Source: Escherichia phage HP3. From it: a stretch of 64,000 bases of DNA. Numbering within the stretch: the first letter of the stretch is position 1; each line of letters starts with the position of its first letter. The position numbers were made by a program, and so were the translations under genes. Shown piece after piece: positions 39,785 through 49,651 of the stretch. The DNA is taken from the sequence record NC_041919.1, one strand, 5' to 3'. The notes under the pieces were generated by a model. The model was not told where the DNA came from, did no database searches, and was given only the letters and a program-made list of their open reading frames with translations.

Positions 39785-40246
39785 ATGATTATTAATGAAA
39801 ACTCTTGGCACTATAAATTATTCAAATTGTTTAACGATGAATGGCAACGACCTAAGACGCTGTGCGCATACTTTTGGTCTATTGTTATCCCTACATTTTT
39901 CGTTTCTTTTTTCGGATGTACTATACTCGTAGGTCTAACTATCATCTGCGCAGAAATCATACAGAAATGGCTTATTTTTGGTAGTTTATGGACTCTTATT
40001 CCATCAGCATTTATACTTGCCATTTTGCTTGTTTTACTTATTGTCGGTTCATTTGTTATTCCTGCACAACTGCGTGAAAAATATAAAGATTATAAATGGA
40101 AAAAGGATTATGCTTTACACGTAGAAAATATTGATAGGGCGTATAAAGGTTTACCTCCTATTCAACCCAAGAAATCGATTATCGTTGAATTTTTAAAAGC
40201 TCGTAAAGCTAAAGTATGTCCTGTTATTGAATATAAGGCTGAATGA
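39785..40246 (+). CDS. Membrane protein
   Basis: 153 aa; two long hydrophobic segments then a basic tail. Confidence 0.45.
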   Translation: MIINENSWHYKLFKLFNDEWQRPKTLCAYFWSIVIPTFFVSFFGCTILVGLTIICAEIIQKWLIFGSLWTLIPSAFILAILLVLLIVGSFVIPAQLREKYKDYKWKKDYALHVENIDRAYKGLPPIQPKKSIIVEFLKARKAKVCPVIEYKAE

Positions 40247-41256
40247 TGAAAACAGTAATGAAAAGCTATTTTGGTAGTCATCTTTATGGAACTTCTACCC
40301 CAGAATCTGATGTAGATTTTAAAGAAATCTTTGTTCCTCCTGCTCGTGATATTCTTATCGGAAATGTTAAAGAGCACATGAGTAAAAACACTAACAACAC
40401 ATCATCTAAAAACACTAAAGATGATATTGACCATGAACTATACAGTCTTAAATATTTCTTTAAATTAGCAGCAGATGGTGAAACTGTAGCGTTAGATATG
40501 CTTCACACTCCACCTGAACTAGTGGTTAAATCTGATTTGCCTGATGTGTGGAAGTTTATTCAAGACAACCGTTCTCGTTTTTATACGACTAACATGAAAT
40601 CCTATTTAGGATATGTCCGTAAGCAAGCTTCTAAATACGGCGTTAAGGGTTCTCGTTTGGCTGCATTACGTGATGTATTGAAAGTAGTTAATCAAATCCC
40701 TGAGCAATGGGTTGATTACCAAGAAGATGGTTCTATTAAGCAGCGTCGTACTAAAGTTGAAGATATTAAGCATCGTCTTCCAGAAAACGAATTCTGTGAA
40801 TGGGTGTTCCATAATCATGAGAAAACAGGCCCACAGACGTTCTACACAGTGTTGGGTCGTAAATATCAGACAACGCTTTCTCTTATTGAGCTTAAGCAGT
40901 CACTGAACAAATTAGATGCTGAATACGGTGAACGTGCTCGTAAGGCCGAAGCCAATGAAGGTATTGACTGGAAAGCTATGAGTCATGCTTGCCGTGGTGG
41001 ACTCCAACTATTGGAAATTTACAAAACTGGTGACTTGGTTTATCCACTCCAAGATGCTCCATTTATTCTCGACGTGAAGTTGGGTAAACATCCATTTAAA
41101 ACGGTTCAAGAGTTTTTGGAAGATGTGGTCGATCAAGTAGAAGCAGCATCTACTGAAGCTTCTAAGAACGGTATGCAGCAAAAAGTAGACATGGGTTTTT
41201 GGGATGACTTCCTTGAGAGGGTTTATCTTGAAAACCACCGAAGTTATTATAAATGA
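40243..41256 (+). CDS. Pol-beta-superfamily nucleotidyltransferase-like protein
   Basis: 337 aa; N-terminal YFGSHLYGTSTPESDVDF fits the GS-x(9-13)-D-x-D nucleotidyltransferase signature. Confidence 0.5.
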   Translation: MMKTVMKSYFGSHLYGTSTPESDVDFKEIFVPPARDILIGNVKEHMSKNTNNTSSKNTKDDIDHELYSLKYFFKLAADGETVALDMLHTPPELVVKSDLPDVWKFIQDNRSRFYTTNMKSYLGYVRKQASKYGVKGSRLAALRDVLKVVNQIPEQWVDYQEDGSIKQRRTKVEDIKHRLPENEFCEWVFHNHEKTGPQTFYTVLGRKYQTTLSLIELKQSLNKLDAEYGERARKAEANEGIDWKAMSHACRGGLQLLEIYKTGDLVYPLQDAPFILDVKLGKHPFKTVQEFLEDVVDQVEAASTEASKNGMQQKVDMGFWDDFLERVYLENHRSYYK

Positions 41257-41258
41257 TA

Positions 41259-41285
41259 GGGAGCCTTCGGGCTCCCTTTTTTTAT
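41259..41285 (+). terminator. Intrinsic terminator
   Basis: gggagccttcgggctccc hairpin followed by a 9 nt T-run. Confidence 0.65.
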
Positions 41286-41308
41286 TTCAAAAATTTTTCA
41301 CAAAATTG

Positions 41309-41337
41309 TTTACAAGCATAAAGCTTTATGGTACTAT
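41309..41337 (+). promoter_or_regulatory. Early promoter
   Basis: ttcacaaaattgtttaca, -35 tttaca, 17 nt spacer, -10 tactat, leader acaactatcaact. Confidence 0.55.
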
Positions 41338-41370
41338 ACAACTATCAACTGATACGGATTTGGAGAATAA

Positions 41371-42340
41371 AATGAAAACTGTAACTATCAATAAGGGTAT
41401 CTACTTCGGTAAAGAAATCTCTGGAACTTTTGAGCTCTTAGGTGAATGGTTCCCAGATAATGCTCCGGTAGATGCACAAGGAGATGGTAAAGTTTTTGTT
41501 GAAATTGACGGTAAGCGTCGCGGTGTTTGGGTTTACAAATCAGACATTTCATATGATGGTGTAAAAGTTGAAGAAGTTAAAGAATCGTATGAAGATATGA
41601 AAACCCGCATTAATAAAAGATTTAATGTTATGGGAATGATGACGAATGGTATTATTAACGGAAACATTCGTTCATTAATTATCTCTGGTGCGGCGGGTAT
41701 TGGTAAAACGTATTCTTTAGATAAAGCTTTAAATAAAGCAAATGATATTGGATACATTGAATATAAAAGCATTAATGGTAAAATCTCTGGTATTGGTCTT
41801 TATGAGCAGCTTTGGAATAATCGTGAAGAGAATTCTGTACTTTTGATTGATGATGTGGATGTTTTCTCTGATATGGACATTCTTAATCTTCTGAAAGCTG
41901 CTCTGGACACCGGAGAGACCCGCAAAGTCTGCTGGAGCACTGCATCTTCTTACTTAGAAGAAAAAGGCATTGAGCGTGAGTTTGAATTTAAAGGAACGAT
42001 TGTTTTTATCACAAACGTTGACATTGACCGCGAATTAGACCGTGGTACTAAACTTGCTCCACATTTACAAGCATTAGTTTCCCGCTCGGTTTATTTAGAT
42101 TTGGGTGTTCACACTAATGAAGAAATTATGGTCAGGGTTGAAGATGTTATTCTTTCAACTGACATGATGCAAAAACGCGGTCTTTCTGATGAAGAAACTT
42201 ATAAAGCATTATCATGGATGAAAGTCAATGTTAATCGTTTACGCAATGTTTCACTGCGTACTGCACTTTATCTTGCTGACTTTATTATGACCGACAAAAA
42301 CGGTTGGGAAGAAATCGCTGAGGTTACTCTTCTGAAATAA
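41371..42340 (+). CDS. AAA+/P-loop ATPase
   Basis: 323 aa from ATG after SD ggagaa; Walker A GAAGIGKT, Walker B LLIDDVD, sensor-like FITN. Confidence 0.55.
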
Positions 42341-42804: not shown

Positions 42805-43332
42805 ATGAACGCTAAAGATATTTTCAACCTGGTAAATTACAACGATGGTAAATTTAAATCTGAAGCACAAAGCAAGTTCTTTAATGACATCTCAATCGGA
42901 GGTGAAATCACGGTTGACGGAGGACAAATTTACAAATCTCGTTGGAATTGGATCGTTATTATCGATGAGATTGGTATTGTAGAAATTTACAAGAATACGA
43001 ATAAAAATCGTACATTACACTGGTCTCGTGATACTAACGAACAGTACAAAAAGGATAAAGCATCTAAATTATCTCGTGTAACTCAAGAAGATATTGAGTT
43101 CATCAAGAAAGATATTTTGATGTATGATAACTTAATTGCTGAAGAGCAAGCTGTTATTGATAAATTTGATGAGATTAAAGCTTCTCGTGAAATTCCTGAT
43201 TTTATGAAAGAATCAGTAAATGAACGATACACTCTCATTTCAGAGCGTATTGAAACTTACAAAAAGCAAAGAGCTGAACGCCAAAATACTCTTCGGAAGT
43301 TTGAAGAACGGTTAAAGACGGTACTCGCATAA
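42805..43332 (+). CDS. Hypothetical protein with C-terminal coiled coil
   Basis: 175 aa. Confidence 0.45.
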   Translation: MNAKDIFNLVNYNDGKFKSEAQSKFFNDISIGGEITVDGGQIYKSRWNWIVIIDEIGIVEIYKNTNKNRTLHWSRDTNEQYKKDKASKLSRVTQEDIEFIKKDILMYDNLIAEEQAVIDKFDEIKASREIPDFMKESVNERYTLISERIETYKKQRAERQNTLRKFEERLKTVLA

Positions 43333-43387: not shown

Positions 43388-43795
43388 ATGAAACAGTTGA
43401 TAATTAAAAGATTGAATTTATTGATATGTTGTTTATGTGTAGTAGTTGCATATGGTTATTACGCAATTAATGATTATATGCATTATAAAGATTATGATGT
43501 TACTGTAGTTAATACCTTTACAGGAACTCAAGGAAAGGGGTCTAGTTTATCGTTTATTGCTGTATATGAACTCAAAGACGGTTATAGATTTAGCGAATAT
43601 ATTTCACCAGAGATGTATTCATCAATAGAAAAAGGCGATAATATTACTGTAAGTTTACGTCCTTTCGACGTAAAACAGACATTGTTTGATAATATTGTTT
43701 GGTTCTTTGGAATGGTATTAGTTCAATCTGTGTGTGGTGCTTATATAGTCTGTTCCATCTTATTCTGTATATTTAGTAAAATTGAAATTGAGTGA
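43388..43795 (+). CDS. Membrane protein
   Basis: 135 aa; N-terminal and C-terminal hydrophobic helices. Confidence 0.45.
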   Translation: MKQLIIKRLNLLICCLCVVVAYGYYAINDYMHYKDYDVTVVNTFTGTQGKGSSLSFIAVYELKDGYRFSEYISPEMYSSIEKGDNITVSLRPFDVKQTLFDNIVWFFGMVLVQSVCGAYIVCSILFCIFSKIEIE

Positions 43796-43802
43796 GGAAA
43801 AT

Positions 43803-44690
43803 ATGTCAGTAGTAATTAATAATGTCAATGCAGTAATTAAATCTTTAGTTAATAAAAAATTGAATGAATGGACTGTACTTCGTCGTGGAGAGCCAGATAA
43901 ATTTTTTCATAGATTTAACCCAACTTTGGATTTGAATGTTATTGACAGAGATGTTCATGCTGAAATTTTAGATAAATTTAAAGTTGATATTGGGTTTGGA
44001 TTAGATAAACATTTACAACGAACAAACGGGTCTGGAATGGGTTTATCTAATCGCATCATGAAAGCCCTTAATAAAATTGGAGCGTTGTCTCGTATTAATG
44101 CGAGTGAAATCCTTCGCAATTATAATAAAGGATATGACCTTTATGGTCGATTAATGCCGAAATTATCATTTGACCAAATGATCGCAGATTTGTGGGAAAA
44201 TCAACGACGATTATTAGCATTAGGCGCTCGATTAGCTAAAGGTCTAGATAAACAAATGATTTTTAAGACCAATAATACAGAAGACCTTAAATGCTTTAAA
44301 TTTAGTATTCGTGGCGATGATTATTATATCAGAGCTCACTCTACAGATTATGTTAATATGGGGCATCATCTCTGTTTAGCTTTTGAAGTTTTAAAAGAAG
44401 CCGGAACATTAGAATATTCATCTGGTGCAAAATGCCCTATTGGTTCAAGTTGTATTTTAATTTATCGCCCGGATGAATCCAGTTCAACTAAATTGCCTAC
44501 AAAACCTGTACCAGTTCGTAGTAATGAAAAACATTCTGAGCAAATTGATTATTTTAATAAGCAAATTGAAGAGCTGAATATTTCTATTCAACAATATGAT
44601 GATGAAATTTTCAGACTATCTGGACTGAGTAGTAAAGCTAAATCTGAGCGTGAAAAGTTAATTAAAATTATCGATTTACTTAAATCTTAA
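43803..44690 (+). CDS. Paralog family member A (coiled-coil C-terminus)
   Basis: 295 aa from ATG after SD gaggaaaat; central RRLLALGARLAKG motif and C-terminal heptad-rich tail, shared with the next three ORFs. Confidence 0.5.
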   Translation: MSVVINNVNAVIKSLVNKKLNEWTVLRRGEPDKFFHRFNPTLDLNVIDRDVHAEILDKFKVDIGFGLDKHLQRTNGSGMGLSNRIMKALNKIGALSRINASEILRNYNKGYDLYGRLMPKLSFDQMIADLWENQRRLLALGARLAKGLDKQMIFKTNNTEDLKCFKFSIRGDDYYIRAHSTDYVNMGHHLCLAFEVLKEAGTLEYSSGAKCPIGSSCILIYRPDESSSTKLPTKPVPVRSNEKHSEQIDYFNKQIEELNISIQQYDDEIFRLSGLSSKAKSEREKLIKIIDLLKS

Positions 44691-44698
44691 GGAACACC

Positions 44699-45721
44699 AT
44701 GAAAACTCGTTCTCAAATTGAAGATATGGTTCGTAATGCCAGCTATACTCGTGATGCTATGACATTTTTGTGCGAAAATAATTTAGACCTTGGTAAAGTT
44801 AATTGTTCCATTCACGCCTTTAAACATCTGAACAGCAGTGAATGGGTGCGTAATTTTAATGAAGCTGGGTATATTACTCAAATGACTGCTCGTGAACAGC
44901 TCACCGATTTCTGTAAAACTATTGATTATAAAAATCCTCTATTTGTTCAAGGTGTTGGTCAGAGTAAGGTCGATTTATCATCTGGATTTTTCAATCCAAA
45001 TCATTATCGTATTGAATGGAGATTTATTGCTCTATTCCGTAAACAATTAAAGCAAATTTTGTCTACTGCTAGTCGATTAAAAGGTTCTGATATTAACTTA
45101 AAGAATCTGAAATTTGATGGTTATACTCTTCAGATGGAAGTAAGACCATTAAAAGAAAATAACAGAACTGCACGAATTAGCTTTAAACCTAATACAAAAA
45201 ATTCTCTTTCAATTTGTGAATGCCTTAAATCACAGTTGACAGAAGCATTTAAGTATATGGATGTAGTTGCCGCGGTTCAGTCTAAGATTTTACCTCATTT
45301 TGAGCGAAATTGGGAACATACAACAACGTATGAACTTGATATGATCGTTTCATTTAAATACGATTTTTTGAGAAAGGACGAAGTCCCGCAAGAGAAAAAG
45401 CAGGAAGTGCAAGATATCTTAAATTTATCCAATTACTCATCAAACGATCCTAAATTTTGGATGTATAGTTCAGGTAATAAAGATACATGGAAATTCAATA
45501 AAGTGAATTTTCTTCCTGTTGAAAATCCGAGTCTTAAACCTGTTGAAAAATGGCACGCGGATGCGATTGAGAAGTCTATCAAGGCAGTAGATGATGAACT
45601 CGTTAAAGCAACTAATGAAGTGTTAGAAGCTGAAAAGATGCTAGAAAAAGCTCAAGAAAAAGTCAAAAATCTTACGAAGCAACGTTCTAAACTGAACAAC
45701 GCACTAAATGCACTAAACTAG
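44699..45721 (+). CDS. Paralog family member B
   Basis: 340 aa; FRKQLKQILSTASRLKG and KYMDVVAAV motifs; C-terminal coiled coil. Confidence 0.5.
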   Translation: MKTRSQIEDMVRNASYTRDAMTFLCENNLDLGKVNCSIHAFKHLNSSEWVRNFNEAGYITQMTAREQLTDFCKTIDYKNPLFVQGVGQSKVDLSSGFFNPNHYRIEWRFIALFRKQLKQILSTASRLKGSDINLKNLKFDGYTLQMEVRPLKENNRTARISFKPNTKNSLSICECLKSQLTEAFKYMDVVAAVQSKILPHFERNWEHTTTYELDMIVSFKYDFLRKDEVPQEKKQEVQDILNLSNYSSNDPKFWMYSSGNKDTWKFNKVNFLPVENPSLKPVEKWHADAIEKSIKAVDDELVKATNEVLEAEKMLEKAQEKVKNLTKQRSKLNNALNALN

Positions 45722-45750
45722 TTTACTTTGCCACAAGGATGTGGTATAAT
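45722..45750 (+). promoter_or_regulatory. Early promoter
   Basis: -35 tttact, 17 nt spacer, extended -10 tggtataat. Confidence 0.55.
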
Positions 45751-45778
45751 GTTCTTACTTTCTACTGAGGAGATTAAT

Positions 45779-46780
45779 ATGACTCGTAACGAATATATCA
45801 AATCATTCAATAGCGTTATTGATGATAAAGTTAAACCTGTGTTTAGTCAGAATAGTGTTATTTCCATTATCAATCAATGGCTCAATAATATTGATGCAAG
45901 TATTGTTTCTTCAAGCAAATTTATTCATGAAGTTCATAAAATTTCTAGTCGCGAATATAAAGATGATATTAAGGAAACTTTTAAAGGTTCTCGTCTTCTT
46001 TCATATTTAGTTAATCAAGATATTCTTGGTAAATTTGGGAAAGAAATTAAACGAACTAAAGATGTAGTAGGATACAGTTGGTTCGGTGATGTTAATTCTT
46101 ATCATCTTAATAATAAAGAAGACCCTGAGAATATTTTTACTCGTCGTTGGATTAGTAATTTTAGACTTTTCAAGAAGCAAATTCTAAAATCAGCTTCTAA
46201 ATTATGCTATGGTGATTATCGTCAAATCCATCCTTGGGCTTCTGATATGATTATCATAAAAGAATATGAGCTTGATAAAAATAAAGCAGCTATTTTTGTG
46301 AATTATGAATTTTTTACACCAGAAGCTAATCAAAAGAACATTAATAAATTTTTCTCAATTGCTAGCGATATAACTCGTCAGTTAGAGACCGCATTACTTT
46401 GTATGGAAACAGTAGAAAATATTCATACTTATCCTTTTAAGAATATATGCGGTTGGGAAGGATATAAAATTGTAGTTAGTCTCCGTGAAGTAAAGTGTGC
46501 GTACTCACCGACTGATAAAGAAATTTACCAACAAAAATGTGATGAAATTGTGAATACTCCTAAAGAAGAAACTACCCTTGAGGAACTAATGGAATGTCTT
46601 GACGATTCGCCTGAACCAGTAGAAATTCGTCCAGAAGTTATTGCACTAGAAAAAGCTTATAAAGAAGTTCTAGAAATTTCTAATAAAGCGCAGAAAGAAT
46701 ATGAGCAGGCTAAAAAGATTTGGGAAGAATCCGTTAATCGTCTTGATCGTCTTGAACAAGCTTTACAGTTAATTAAGTAA
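45779..46780 (+). CDS. Paralog family member C
   Basis: 333 aa from ATG after SD gaggag; FKKQILKSASKL motif; C-terminal coiled coil. Confidence 0.5.
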   Translation: MTRNEYIKSFNSVIDDKVKPVFSQNSVISIINQWLNNIDASIVSSSKFIHEVHKISSREYKDDIKETFKGSRLLSYLVNQDILGKFGKEIKRTKDVVGYSWFGDVNSYHLNNKEDPENIFTRRWISNFRLFKKQILKSASKLCYGDYRQIHPWASDMIIIKEYELDKNKAAIFVNYEFFTPEANQKNINKFFSIASDITRQLETALLCMETVENIHTYPFKNICGWEGYKIVVSLREVKCAYSPTDKEIYQQKCDEIVNTPKEETTLEELMECLDDSPEPVEIRPEVIALEKAYKEVLEISNKAQKEYEQAKKIWEESVNRLDRLEQALQLIK

Positions 46781-46832
46781 TTTAAAGCCAAGGATGGCTC
46801 GGAGTATAAACCATTAACCAAGTGAGAAGAAT

Positions 46833-47762
46833 ATGAAAACTCGTAAACATTATATTGATTATTTTGACAGTCTTATTACTAAACACCGTAATTATCAGAT
46901 CGGGCACAGAGCAGTAATCAATAATATTCTTCGTGATTTCCTTCAATATGTTGGTCAGGAAAATCATATCTGTAAAGATACTCAAAACGCTTATTCTCAT
47001 TCGTTAGGCAATTTGCTTGAATGGTTTAAACGTTCTCGTATGTTATCTTCTACTGTAGCTCATGAGAACATTAAAAACTTTATGAAGCCGAGCTTCATTA
47101 AATCTGAGACATCTATAACCGATTTGGTTGAATTTACTATTGTTAATGATGTTAAAAAGACTCATTTGGCTGATTGGTTTTCTACCATTCCTGAAACTAA
47201 ATTTGCTGATAAATTTGCTTGTCAATTCAATGACCAAGTGAATATGCTTTTTAAGCATGCTCGCAAACTATTTACCGCGGGCGATGACCGTACAAATACA
47301 GTTCATGTTAAGGACTGGGTTATTGCTGATGAAGTAACACACAAGCCAGGTGGTTCATCAGTATTAATTAATATCCAGGTTCCTTATTATTACTCACGTA
47401 ATCTTGGCACCATGACAGCTAAAGAAATTAATAAGCACAACAAAACTATTCGTTCGTTGTCTTATAAACTCCGCATGATGTTAAAAATTATGGACGTAGT
47501 GGAAATGTATGACGAAACCGAAGATAATGGTTCAATGTTATACAGTTCACGCATTCTAATTAAACTGAAGAACCCTAATACATATAAGACAGTTGTAAAA
47601 GAGCCTAAAGTAGAAAAGGTTGATAATCTGAGTGAAGAACGTGAATATCTCAATGCCCGTTTGATTGAAGTTGAAGCCCAAATTGCAGAACACACCAAAT
47701 TGTTAAAAGCTCTTAATGCAAAAGCAAATGGTTTACGTAATGCTATTGAGGTATTGAAATGA
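46833..47762 (+). CDS. Paralog family member D
   Basis: 309 aa; LFKHARKLF and KIMDVVEMY motifs; C-terminal coiled coil. Confidence 0.5.
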   Translation: MKTRKHYIDYFDSLITKHRNYQIGHRAVINNILRDFLQYVGQENHICKDTQNAYSHSLGNLLEWFKRSRMLSSTVAHENIKNFMKPSFIKSETSITDLVEFTIVNDVKKTHLADWFSTIPETKFADKFACQFNDQVNMLFKHARKLFTAGDDRTNTVHVKDWVIADEVTHKPGGSSVLINIQVPYYYSRNLGTMTAKEINKHNKTIRSLSYKLRMMLKIMDVVEMYDETEDNGSMLYSSRILIKLKNPNTYKTVVKEPKVEKVDNLSEEREYLNARLIEVEAQIAEHTKLLKALNAKANGLRNAIEVLK

Positions 47763-48148
47763 AAAAGCGTTTATTAGAAGACATTGCAGCTTCAAGTAAT
47801 TCCAGTTTAATTAAAATTATTATGGCTGGTGAGGAAGATGATATGGAAATGCGTGGAAAGATTCACGGCTGCGACGATTTAGATTTTAAACCTCCAGCAT
47901 GGGATGCTATTATGGCTATGGTTGAACGACGTGAAAGAGCTTCTAAAAACGTTCCTAATTGCCCTGAATGCGGTACTGAACAAGTTCAGTTGATTAACTG
48001 GCGTAAACCAGAGCTTGAATATAAATGCCGTCAATGTAAACATAAATTCAGTAAGCATGCTCCGGAAATGGTTAAATTGCCTGACTCTACTGAGTTCTTT
48101 AAAGAACTTGTGAGTGTTCAACCAATGCCTAATAATATTTTGGATTAA
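47759..48148 (+). CDS. Zinc-ribbon protein
   Basis: 129 aa; CPECG...17 aa...CRQC four-Cys ribbon. Confidence 0.45.
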
Positions 48149-48150
48149 AA

Positions 48151-48393
48151 ATGACCAAGCGTAAAGAATATATGGAGGCTGCTGAAAAGGCAGTCCGTGA
48201 ATTAGCAATAGCTTATTATAATGAACACGGTAAATTTCCTGATAGATACAGCGTGCTTAAATCTGCTTTAACTCGTTCATATAAAAATATGCTATCAGAA
48301 GTAAGTGATATTATATACAAACATAAAGAACAAACGGGCCAAAGTCTTGATTACGACGAGACTTTTAAACAAGTACTAGGAATTAAGGAATAA
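48151..48393 (+). CDS. Hypothetical protein
   Basis: 80 aa. Confidence 0.4.
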
Positions 48394-48394
48394 T

Positions 48395-48658
48395 ATGTTT
48401 AAAGTATATGGTTATGATAGCAACATTCATAAATGCGTGTATTGCGATAATGCAAAACGTCTTTTGACTGTGAAGAAACAGCCGTTTGAATTTATCAACA
48501 TTATGCCGGAAAAAGGTGTTTTTGATGATGAGAAAATCGCTGAGCTTCTGACTAAACTAGGTCGTGATACTCAAATCGGCTTGACAATGCCTCAGGTATT
48601 TGCTCCTGATGGAAGTCATATTGGTGGATTTGACCAACTGCGAGAATATTTTAAATGA
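48395..48658 (+). CDS. nrdC: Thioredoxin/glutaredoxin NrdC
   Basis: 87 aa; CVYC active site; MFKVYGYDSNIHKCVYCDNAKRLL matches recalled T4 thioredoxin. Confidence 0.9.
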   Translation: MFKVYGYDSNIHKCVYCDNAKRLLTVKKQPFEFINIMPEKGVFDDEKIAELLTKLGRDTQIGLTMPQVFAPDGSHIGGFDQLREYFK

Positions 48659-48870
48659 TGCTCGAAGGAACTGACTATATTCATGATTACCGCGGAAGCG
48701 CGGTATATGTAGGTGATGAAGTTGCAGTTTATTATGGGTATGGAACTTTGATGACAGCCAAGGTTATTCAAATTAAAAATAATCGTGCTAAACTCGAAGT
48801 TTATTATTCTAATGGCGAAAAGTCTATTTCTAAGTGGAAATACGGCGATTGCATGGTCAAACTGGGGTAA
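48655..48870 (+). CDS. Hypothetical protein
   Basis: 71 aa; ATGA overlap with nrdC. Confidence 0.4.
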   Translation: MMLEGTDYIHDYRGSAVYVGDEVAVYYGYGTLMTAKVIQIKNNRAKLEVYYSNGEKSISKWKYGDCMVKLG

Positions 48871-48872
48871 AT

Positions 48873-49043
48873 ATGATTTACGATATTAATGTATCACGAG
48901 CTCCGTCAATGGTTACTATTCCAGCCGAAGAACTAGATCGTCTTCAGAAAATTGAAGAACTTCTTTGGGAAATTGAATGTGACCTGCCATCAGGACTAGA
49001 ATCTTGGATTGATTATGAAGAACTTAATAAGCTTCGGGGTTAA
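48873..49043 (+). CDS. Hypothetical small acidic protein
   Basis: 56 aa from ATG (MIYDINVSRAPSMVT...). Confidence 0.35.
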   Translation: MIYDINVSRAPSMVTIPAEELDRLQKIEELLWEIECDLPSGLESWIDYEELNKLRG

Positions 49044-49165
49044 ACCTTGGTGGGCGGCTAGATGGGAAACTGTAGAGCCAGAGCCGGAAGAACCGGTTTA
49101 CACTGATGAAGAAACAATATATAATGAACCAACGATAAATGACTTAATTGATATGGAGATGGGAC

Positions 49166-49651
49166 ATGATTACAGTAGATAAGTGGTTTAGAATTAATCG
49201 TGCTGATACAGGGCTGTGTAATTACTGGCCGGAACTTAGTGCAGGTACTGTCTTTAAAGTTCGTGAACTTGCAAAAGAATGTGAAGATGATATAGAGCCT
49301 GATACTGGAATTATTGAAATTGAACTTTCCGACGGAAAGATTATTAACATCTACGATAAGCCAATTACGTATTGGTGCTTGTGGAATACTGAATCCATTG
49401 AAAATGGCGAAATTGAAGAAGTTGTAGAGCGAACTAATCAAGTTGTTCAGAAGCCTAAAGCCGATTTTCAAGGTGAACGTATTTCATACGCATTAGCTAA
49501 ATTAGCTGCACAAGAAAATAACGATGGCTATGAAGGAAATTTGATGCAAGCTGCGGCAGAATATATTGAATGGCTTGAAACCCAAATTTCTTTTTCTGAC
49601 CAAAAGATTCGGCAATATAAGCGATTGAATCAAATGTTTTACAATACTTGA
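49166..49651 (+). CDS. Pin-like protein (host Lon protease inhibitor position)
   Basis: 161 aa from ATG after SD ggagatggga; length and position match T4 pin; sequence not verified. Confidence 0.4.
   Translation: MITVDKWFRINRADTGLCNYWPELSAGTVFKVRELAKECEDDIEPDTGIIEIELSDGKIINIYDKPITYWCLWNTESIENGEIEEVVERTNQVVQKPKADFQGERISYALAKLAAQENNDGYEGNLMQAAAEYIEWLETQISFSDQKIRQYKRLNQMFYNT

Follow-up and report, generated by a model that had tools for sequence, protein, structure and literature searches.

Paralogues and a probable paralogue of the anti-Dsr1 factor NrdC.5 in the nrdC region of Escherichia phage HP3.1: a phage-restricted family with a possible counter-defence role

NrdC.5 and the nrdC region of T4-like phages

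The T4 nrdC.5 gene, described as an early gene, was linked to counter-defence when an evolved T4 deletion mutant lost the ability to infect E. coli ECOR17 and nrdC.5 restored infection against the Dsr1 system of this strain (Srikant, Guegler and Laub, eLife 2022; PMC9391042). In that study, NrdC.5 expressed from a plasmid was by itself sufficient to rescue the deletion phage on dsr1+ cells (PMC9391042). According to a 2026 preprint, the major capsid protein of the phage triggers the tetratricopeptide repeat (TPR) sensor of Dsr1 (PMC12803255). Literature searches retrieved no later work on the mechanism or relatives of nrdC.5, nor on DUF7235, PF26897 or PF26899, and NrdC.5 has so far been an orphan anti-Dsr1 factor with no known relatives. 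Here, four consecutive genes of Escherichia phage HP3.1, a T4-like Tequatrovirus, are described from a 64,000-nucleotide stretch of DNA (hereafter, the window). By position and annotation they are nrdC.6, nrdC.5, nrdC.4 and nrdC.3, whose products are labelled A, B, C and D. B, C and D firmly, and A probably, belong to one superfamily with a common architecture, which may serve to block host immune sensors.

The four open reading frames (ORFs) lie on the plus strand, exactly at the positions given in the initial annotation of this DNA: A (43803-44690, 295 aa), the most divergent family member; B (44699-45721, 340 aa), the counterpart of the published anti-Dsr1 gene; C (45779-46780, 333 aa); and D (46833-47762, 309 aa), a Tequatrovirus-only duplicate of the C lineage. 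All four are preceded by a GAGG-type, Shine-Dalgarno-like ribosome-binding site. Bases 43700-47800 matched HP3.1 at 100% identity and hundreds of Tequatrovirus genomes at 91-98%. The genes are placed in the early nrdC-mobD accessory region, within the run nrdC.11 … nrdC.1-nrdC-pin-49-nrdD of the annotated relatives ime09 and T4, and the order nrdC.6-.5-.4-.3-.2-.1-nrdC was identical in the window and in both relatives.

Identity to the T4 proteins was 97% for A (over 259 aa), 91.5% for B (over 340 aa), 91.6% for C and 61% for D, whose differences from T4 NrdC.3 were concentrated in residues 80-270. The orthology of B with T4 nrdC.5, from which it differs at about 29 positions, is indicated by this identity, by the same position and by a full-length Pfam match. 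The initial annotation had considered an anti-defence role plausible, as is now published for one member, T4 nrdC.5 against Dsr1 (PMC9391042); its statement that function could not be inferred from these sequences was already out of date as regards B.

Paralogy of the four proteins

Curated libraries split the four proteins among different families. A matched phrog_2257 over its full length (E 5e-153), and all A homologues carry the precomputed annotation PF26899. B belongs to phrog_2351 and matched the Pfam family DUF7235 (PF23882) over residues 1-340 with 419.8 bits (cut-off 30, E 1e-125), a family to which A, C and D gave no match. C and D share phrog_1435 in full-length matches (E 2e-166 and 8e-116, respectively), with PF26897 carried by all C homologues. 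When the four were compared by BLASTP, C-D was the sole significant pair (E 5e-6; 25% identity across 229 aa), the others all giving E values above 0.009, so that paralogy was not settled by pairwise comparison.

Family profiles, built from alignments of database homologues and of 14 related loci, reached further. C and D were matched with a probability of 97.6% (E 4e-12, 213 columns), and B and C with 92.8% (E 4e-7, 251 columns, B 47-340 on C 62-333). A was compared with a merged C+D+B profile, on which A 83-152 aligned with C 62-150 (80.5%, E 1.3e-5), and an independent run with other alignments of B, C and D recovered the same A segment (73.7%, E 2.9e-5); together, both comparisons spanned A 60-152, including the two conserved helices described below. 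Moreover, a protein from a Klebsiella T4-like phage (P0238) bridged two of the families, matching phrog_2351 through its tail (E 4e-11) and phrog_1435 over its full length (E 2e-9).

These comparisons, together with the structural models of A and C, place the four proteins in one superfamily, firmly in the case of B, C and D. The membership of A is probable, with good but not conclusive support. The paralogy of the four ORFs proposed in the initial annotation is upheld by profile comparison, although pairwise BLASTP recovers only C-D.

Shared architecture and predicted structure

In each protein, helices at the N-terminus precede a helix pair and an α/β core, after which a disordered linker leads to a C-terminal heptad helix of about 50 residues. 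Profile alignments placed the basic helix in register in A (134-147), B (113-129), C (131-146) and D (136-151), so that the motif pointed out in the initial annotation appears to be truly homologous across all four proteins. A second common helix followed the pattern (S)R.LS..V...IL..F(G)K, and the MDVV-type segment initially recognised in B and D was found as an MDVV/METV helix in B, C and D.

In A, the two helices LSRINASEILRNYNKGY (aa 95-111) and QRRLLALGARLAKG (aa 134-147), encoded at 44085-44243, form the best-conserved block of the A family and lie in the segment aligned with C, D and B: LSRINASEILRNYNKGY matches SRLLSYLVNQDILGKFGK and QRRLLALGARLAKG matches FKKQILKSASKLCYGD. The corresponding region of C (45989-46216) extends from SRLLSYLVNQDILGKFGK (aa 71-88) through the basic helix FKKQILKSASKLCYGD (aa 131-146), and AlphaFold modelled helices at residues 72-84 and 132-142 of this protein. 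The basic helix of B, FRKQLKQILSTASRLKG (aa 113-129; 45035-45085), was paired with C 131-146 when the B and C profiles were aligned, and the C-D alignment defined the region of D from SRMLSSTVAHENIKNFMK (aa 68-85) through the basic helix VNMLFKHARKLFTAGD (aa 136-151; 47034-47285). All of these segments lie on the plus strand.

The initial annotation had described N-terminal parts of 100-150 residues that differed among the proteins. This held for the first 50-80 residues, which, with some loops, were the only poorly conserved parts. The shared core starts at about residue 47-83, and similarity runs through most of the head; the alignment of C with D starts at residue 2-3, and M(K)TR opens B, C and D alike.

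The heptad-rich tails were confirmed in the four proteins, all encoded on the plus strand. In A, the helix covers aa 246-295 (44538-44687; end KLIKIIDLLKS) and is supported by its heptad score, by conservation across clades and by an AlphaFold helix at 245-294. In B, aa 287-340 (45557-45718; end KLNNALNALN) are supported by heptad score and clade conservation. In C, aa 285-333 (46631-46777; end RLEQALQLIK) correspond to an AlphaFold helix at 285-332, and in D, aa 266-309 (47628-47759) have the heptad score and are about 100% conserved between D alleles. The heptad regularity of the last 42 residues was matched by only 0-0.35% of composition-matched shuffles in A, B and D, and by 4% in C.

The carboxyl ends carry the motif R..L..A[LI]..L[LI]K in register in the four proteins. 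This motif was kept in every orthologue from the 14 loci, in the distant members P0226, P0228, P0238 and P0239, and in the most distant full-length relatives, such as those ending in QRGKLLRAIQALK and QRDALVNAIKEFK. Conservation within the orthologue groups was highest in the last 30 residues and in the central helices, and in the C family the last 30 aa were the most conserved of all (0.90-0.93). Among the ATG-initiated ORFs of at least 50 aa in the window, no other matched the strict C-terminal motif, which was derived from A-D themselves. The neighbouring nrdC.8 was considered as a fifth member and rejected: its end is a similar heptad helix (...LRKFEERLKTVLA), but it fell short of significance against the family profiles (P 0.04-0.33).

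In natural variants, the tail behaves as a module. In one of them (P0234), an unrelated 118-residue head is joined to the last 53 residues of nrdC.5; searches of the window, the loci and the phage collection gave only weak partial matches for this foreign head. In the contig of phage vB_EcoM_005 (L013 7941-8912 and 5606-6031), nrdC.4 and nrdC.8 have each lost about 30 residues, in frame, from within the C-terminal helix, and in both the last ten or so residues are spared.

Other rearrangements were also observed. One protein (P0120) is a deletion fusion of nrdC.5 (146-272) to nrdC.3 (129-309), and the nrdC.6 of Shigella phage Sf25 (P0121) has an internal duplication of residues 176-258. The nrdC.6 of the reference T4 genome (NC_000866; L018 9067-9894) is annotated with 275 aa, a frameshifted end and no conserved terminal helix; in the HIDEN-SEQ supplement, the gene of T4D is listed with 891 nt, pointing to a strain difference or a sequencing error.

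AlphaFold models were available for C, with a predicted local distance difference test score (pLDDT) of 84 and a predicted template modelling score (pTM) of 0.68, and for A (pLDDT 75, pTM 0.63). From the helix pair on, both models have an identical order of elements: two helices, short strands, two helices, a β-hairpin, a long helix and a second β-hairpin, after which a low-confidence linker (C 261-284, A 226-240) leads into one long terminal helix. Foldseek searches of predicted viral structures matched the C model to nrdC.6 of phage JS10 (E 1e-5; template modelling score, TM-score, 0.42/0.49). Moreover, the A and C models share a set of BFVD targets, namely uncharacterised proteins of 300-370 aa from T4-like phages of Acinetobacter, Klebsiella, Enterobacter, Pectobacterium, Erwinia and Serratia. 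The A and C models are consistent with a shared predicted fold.

Across the B, C and D families, only T2, R3 and three phenylalanines (F68, F86 and F128, C numbering) are invariant, which argues against an enzyme. In Pfam, NCBIfam and PADLOC scans, A-D matched no functionally characterised family above threshold, and the PDB, when searched by sequence with the four proteins, yielded no match and no solved relative. The small number of invariant residues and this lack of a match to families of known function suggest a binder rather than an enzyme.

Distribution and sequence variation

The genes for A, B and C were found in the same order in 14 of 14 related loci, including clades whose proteins are only 40-50% identical to those of the window. 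D was restricted to Tequatrovirus loci and absent from all nine loci outside this genus, and Klebsiella phage Marfa and Enterobacter phage IME523 have a single family member upstream of nrdC at the equivalent position. The copy number at this conserved site ranges from one to four among the loci compared. A search of 1.84 billion representative proteins with the B/C/D profile returned only 17 matches, all of them phage relatives or fragments, which indicates that the family is small and phage-restricted at the sequence level; no cellular homologue was found among these representatives, and the search gave no functional lead.

The two Tequatrovirus D alleles are about 90% identical over residues 1-75, 30-65% identical in the α/β core and about 100% identical in the tail. 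The gene-wide ratio of non-synonymous to synonymous substitution rates (dN/dS) was 0.07-0.36 for A-D and at most 0.05 for nrdC, nrdC.8 and nrdC.10; these gene-wide values gave no sign of positive selection, indicating purifying selection that is looser than in the neighbouring genes. The initial annotation had seen a diversifying family on a common scaffold. The conserved tails and central helices fit such a picture, as do the D alleles, which vary in the core while keeping the tail constant, but the dN/dS values are those of purifying selection. In one Tequatrovirus contig (L008 7971-9003), a probable frameshift has divided nrdC.4 into two ORFs of 193 and 158 aa that overlap, and the gene may be dispensable in that phage.

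Possible function and alternative explanations

The reading that we favour, with a probability of roughly 0.55, is that A-D make up a single family of T4-like phages, old and fast-diverging, whose members are early, non-essential proteins acting as non-enzymatic blockers of immune sensors, with a variable head carried on a conserved stalk. The head, composed of the N-terminal helices, the helix pair and a four-stranded α/β core, would recognise the host immune target by direct binding, and the conserved C-terminal helix would be a stalk for coiled-coil oligomerisation or docking that confers avidity or keeps the target locked in an inactive arrangement. In the case of B, early-made NrdC.5 might occupy or lock the Dsr1 NADase (nicotinamide adenine dinucleotide hydrolase) before the capsid protein appears late in infection, and A, C and D might cover other sensor variants or other defences. 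A more elaborate version appears improbable: the heads would derive from or mimic a tail-terminator-like virion fold and engage Dsr1/Avs-type sensors, and the paralogues would co-assemble through their near-identical helix ends into mixed oligomers able to block several sensors.

Several observations weigh against a family of sensor blockers. Experimental anti-defence support within the family is limited to T4 NrdC.5, and even there the relief of Dsr1 could be indirect. The Bas37 orthologues bas37_0198-0201 showed no significant fitness change in a transposon screen on hosts CFT073 and CFE299. A, B and D have basic heads (isoelectric point about 9.2, charge +7 to +8; that of C is weakly basic, +3.9), and such heads would also suit nucleic-acid binding. 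A was not significant against the B, C or D profile taken singly (P 0.04-0.19), and it is joined to the merged profile at just 74-80% HH-comparison probability over 70-81 columns. Finally, as gene-wide selection is purifying, the word "diversifying" rests mainly on the D alleles and on the divergence among paralogues.

The main rival, rather unlikely in our estimate, accepts A-D as paralogues and takes them for host-takeover or nucleic-acid-binding factors, the relief of Dsr1 by NrdC.5 being an indirect effect of, for example, an altered timing or mode of capsid protein exposure, host physiology or NAD metabolism. The basic heads, the early expression, the lack of a published NrdC.5 mechanism in the literature found and the silence of the orthologues on the two clinical hosts all fit this explanation. 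Nevertheless, library scans recognised no nucleic-acid-binding or enzymatic domain, the head of C departs from the strongly basic pattern, plasmid-borne NrdC.5 alone rescued the deletion phage on dsr1+ cells (PMC9391042), and neighbouring genes inhibit single defence systems specifically.

That only B, C and D are related, and that A merely resembles them through a chance α/β-plus-helix layout with a coiled-coil end, is a good deal less probable. BLASTP gives nothing for A, the single-profile comparisons fail, its model has only moderate confidence (pLDDT 75) and the TM-scores between models are 0.4-0.5. Against this, the same 70-81 columns are aligned, with E values of 1e-5 to 3e-5, in two profile comparisons made independently, secondary-structure elements follow one another identically in the A and C models, Foldseek matches are reciprocal with a common target set, the C-terminal motif falls in the same register, and A adjoins B and C in every sampled clade.

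Least probable of all is that the heads are early-made mimics of the tail-terminator-like virion fold, serving as decoys for shape-recognising host sensors, since the weak Foldseek matches to annotated tail terminators and the report of bacterial sensors that recognise this fold (PMC12803255) stand against the absence of sequence similarity to tail terminators, a known target, Dsr1, that senses the capsid protein instead, and the expectation that a sensor-binding mimic would trigger the sensor.

Other features of the region and neighbouring genes

In the B-C spacer (45722-45778), a promoter-like site (TTTACT-17-TATAAT with TG; 45722-45750, plus strand) matched 10 of 12 consensus positions, a weak indication, as such sites were not enriched across the region (42 seen against 36 ± 6.5 expected). 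A small hairpin (45729-45746, plus strand) overlaps this site. The start of C at 45779 is favoured by its GAGGAG ribosome-binding site, by orthologues beginning with MTRNEYI and by this promoter-like site, within which the longer annotated nrdC.4 start (45749, 343 aa) would fall.

The genes for A-D are surrounded by others with reported roles in counter-defence. The upstream nrdC.8 (42805-43332, plus strand, 175 aa) shares 99.4% identity with bas37_0203 of phage Bas37 (KarlGJung, MZ501089), which a 2025 preprint describes as an inhibitor of Druantia type III. The downstream nrdC.1 (48151-48393, plus strand, 80 aa) is 100% identical to bas37_0196; T4 nrdC.1 reportedly inhibits Septu, and depletion of bas37_0196 was seen on CFE299, a host that carries Septu (log2 fold change -2.37, adjusted p 0.024). 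T6 gp49.2 inhibits OLD, and T4 gp49.2 occupies the equivalent locus. Counterparts of gp49.2 and gp49.3 were not found in the window at 48655-49200 (plus strand), where only gp49.1 and pin were recognised and different small ORFs lie between nrdC and gp49.1.

Further upstream (within 40243-42340, plus strand), nrdC.11 encodes an RlaP-type nucleotidyltransferase domain of the Pol-beta family (PF10127, E 2e-11) and nrdC.10 a P-loop ATPase with weak AAA/STAND-like matches, with a strong terminator-like hairpin between them (41258-41277).

Significance and comparison with known systems

The paralogy and common architecture of these proteins, the way they are conserved and their distribution among phage clades were established in the present analysis, and the interpretation offered by the initial annotation was largely supported, with the corrections that similarity spans most of the head and that the function of one member had already been published. 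The advance is incremental, consisting of a classification and a hypothesis with no new mechanism. If nrdC.3, nrdC.4 and nrdC.6 are paralogues of NrdC.5, three T4 genes annotated as hypothetical become counter-defence candidates, and the same candidacy extends to similar proteins in T4-like phages of Klebsiella, Acinetobacter, Enterobacter, Pectobacterium and others. Moreover, A-D add to the view that the nrdC region of therapy phages is a dense cluster of anti-defence genes.

Among described proteins, the tail terminator or completion proteins of the lambda gpU type have a weak structural likeness to the nrdC proteins and no sequence signal. Unlike them, the nrdC proteins are early and non-essential and possess extra N-terminal helices and a long C-terminal helix. 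A-D are located in an early accessory region and not in a late, essential tail module, their orthologues were all non-essential in the T4 and Bas37 transposon screens, and nothing suggests that they are virion components.

NrdC.1, NrdC.8 (Bas37_0203) and Gp49.2 share with A-D the neighbourhood, the early expression and the non-essential character, and each of them neutralises one defence system; they differ from A-D in being much smaller (80-175 aa) and in having no detectable homology to them. DSAD1 of SPbeta-group phages resembles A-D neither in sequence nor in fold, and is like NrdC.5 in being a phage protein that neutralises a defence-associated sirtuin, in this case DSR2; in two reports (PMC10981675, PMC11087589), it is described as acting by direct binding to the defence protein. 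The closest described system is T4 NrdC.5 itself (DUF7235, PF23882), of which A, C and D appear as distant paralogues with the same architecture, classified in separate Pfam and PHROG families.

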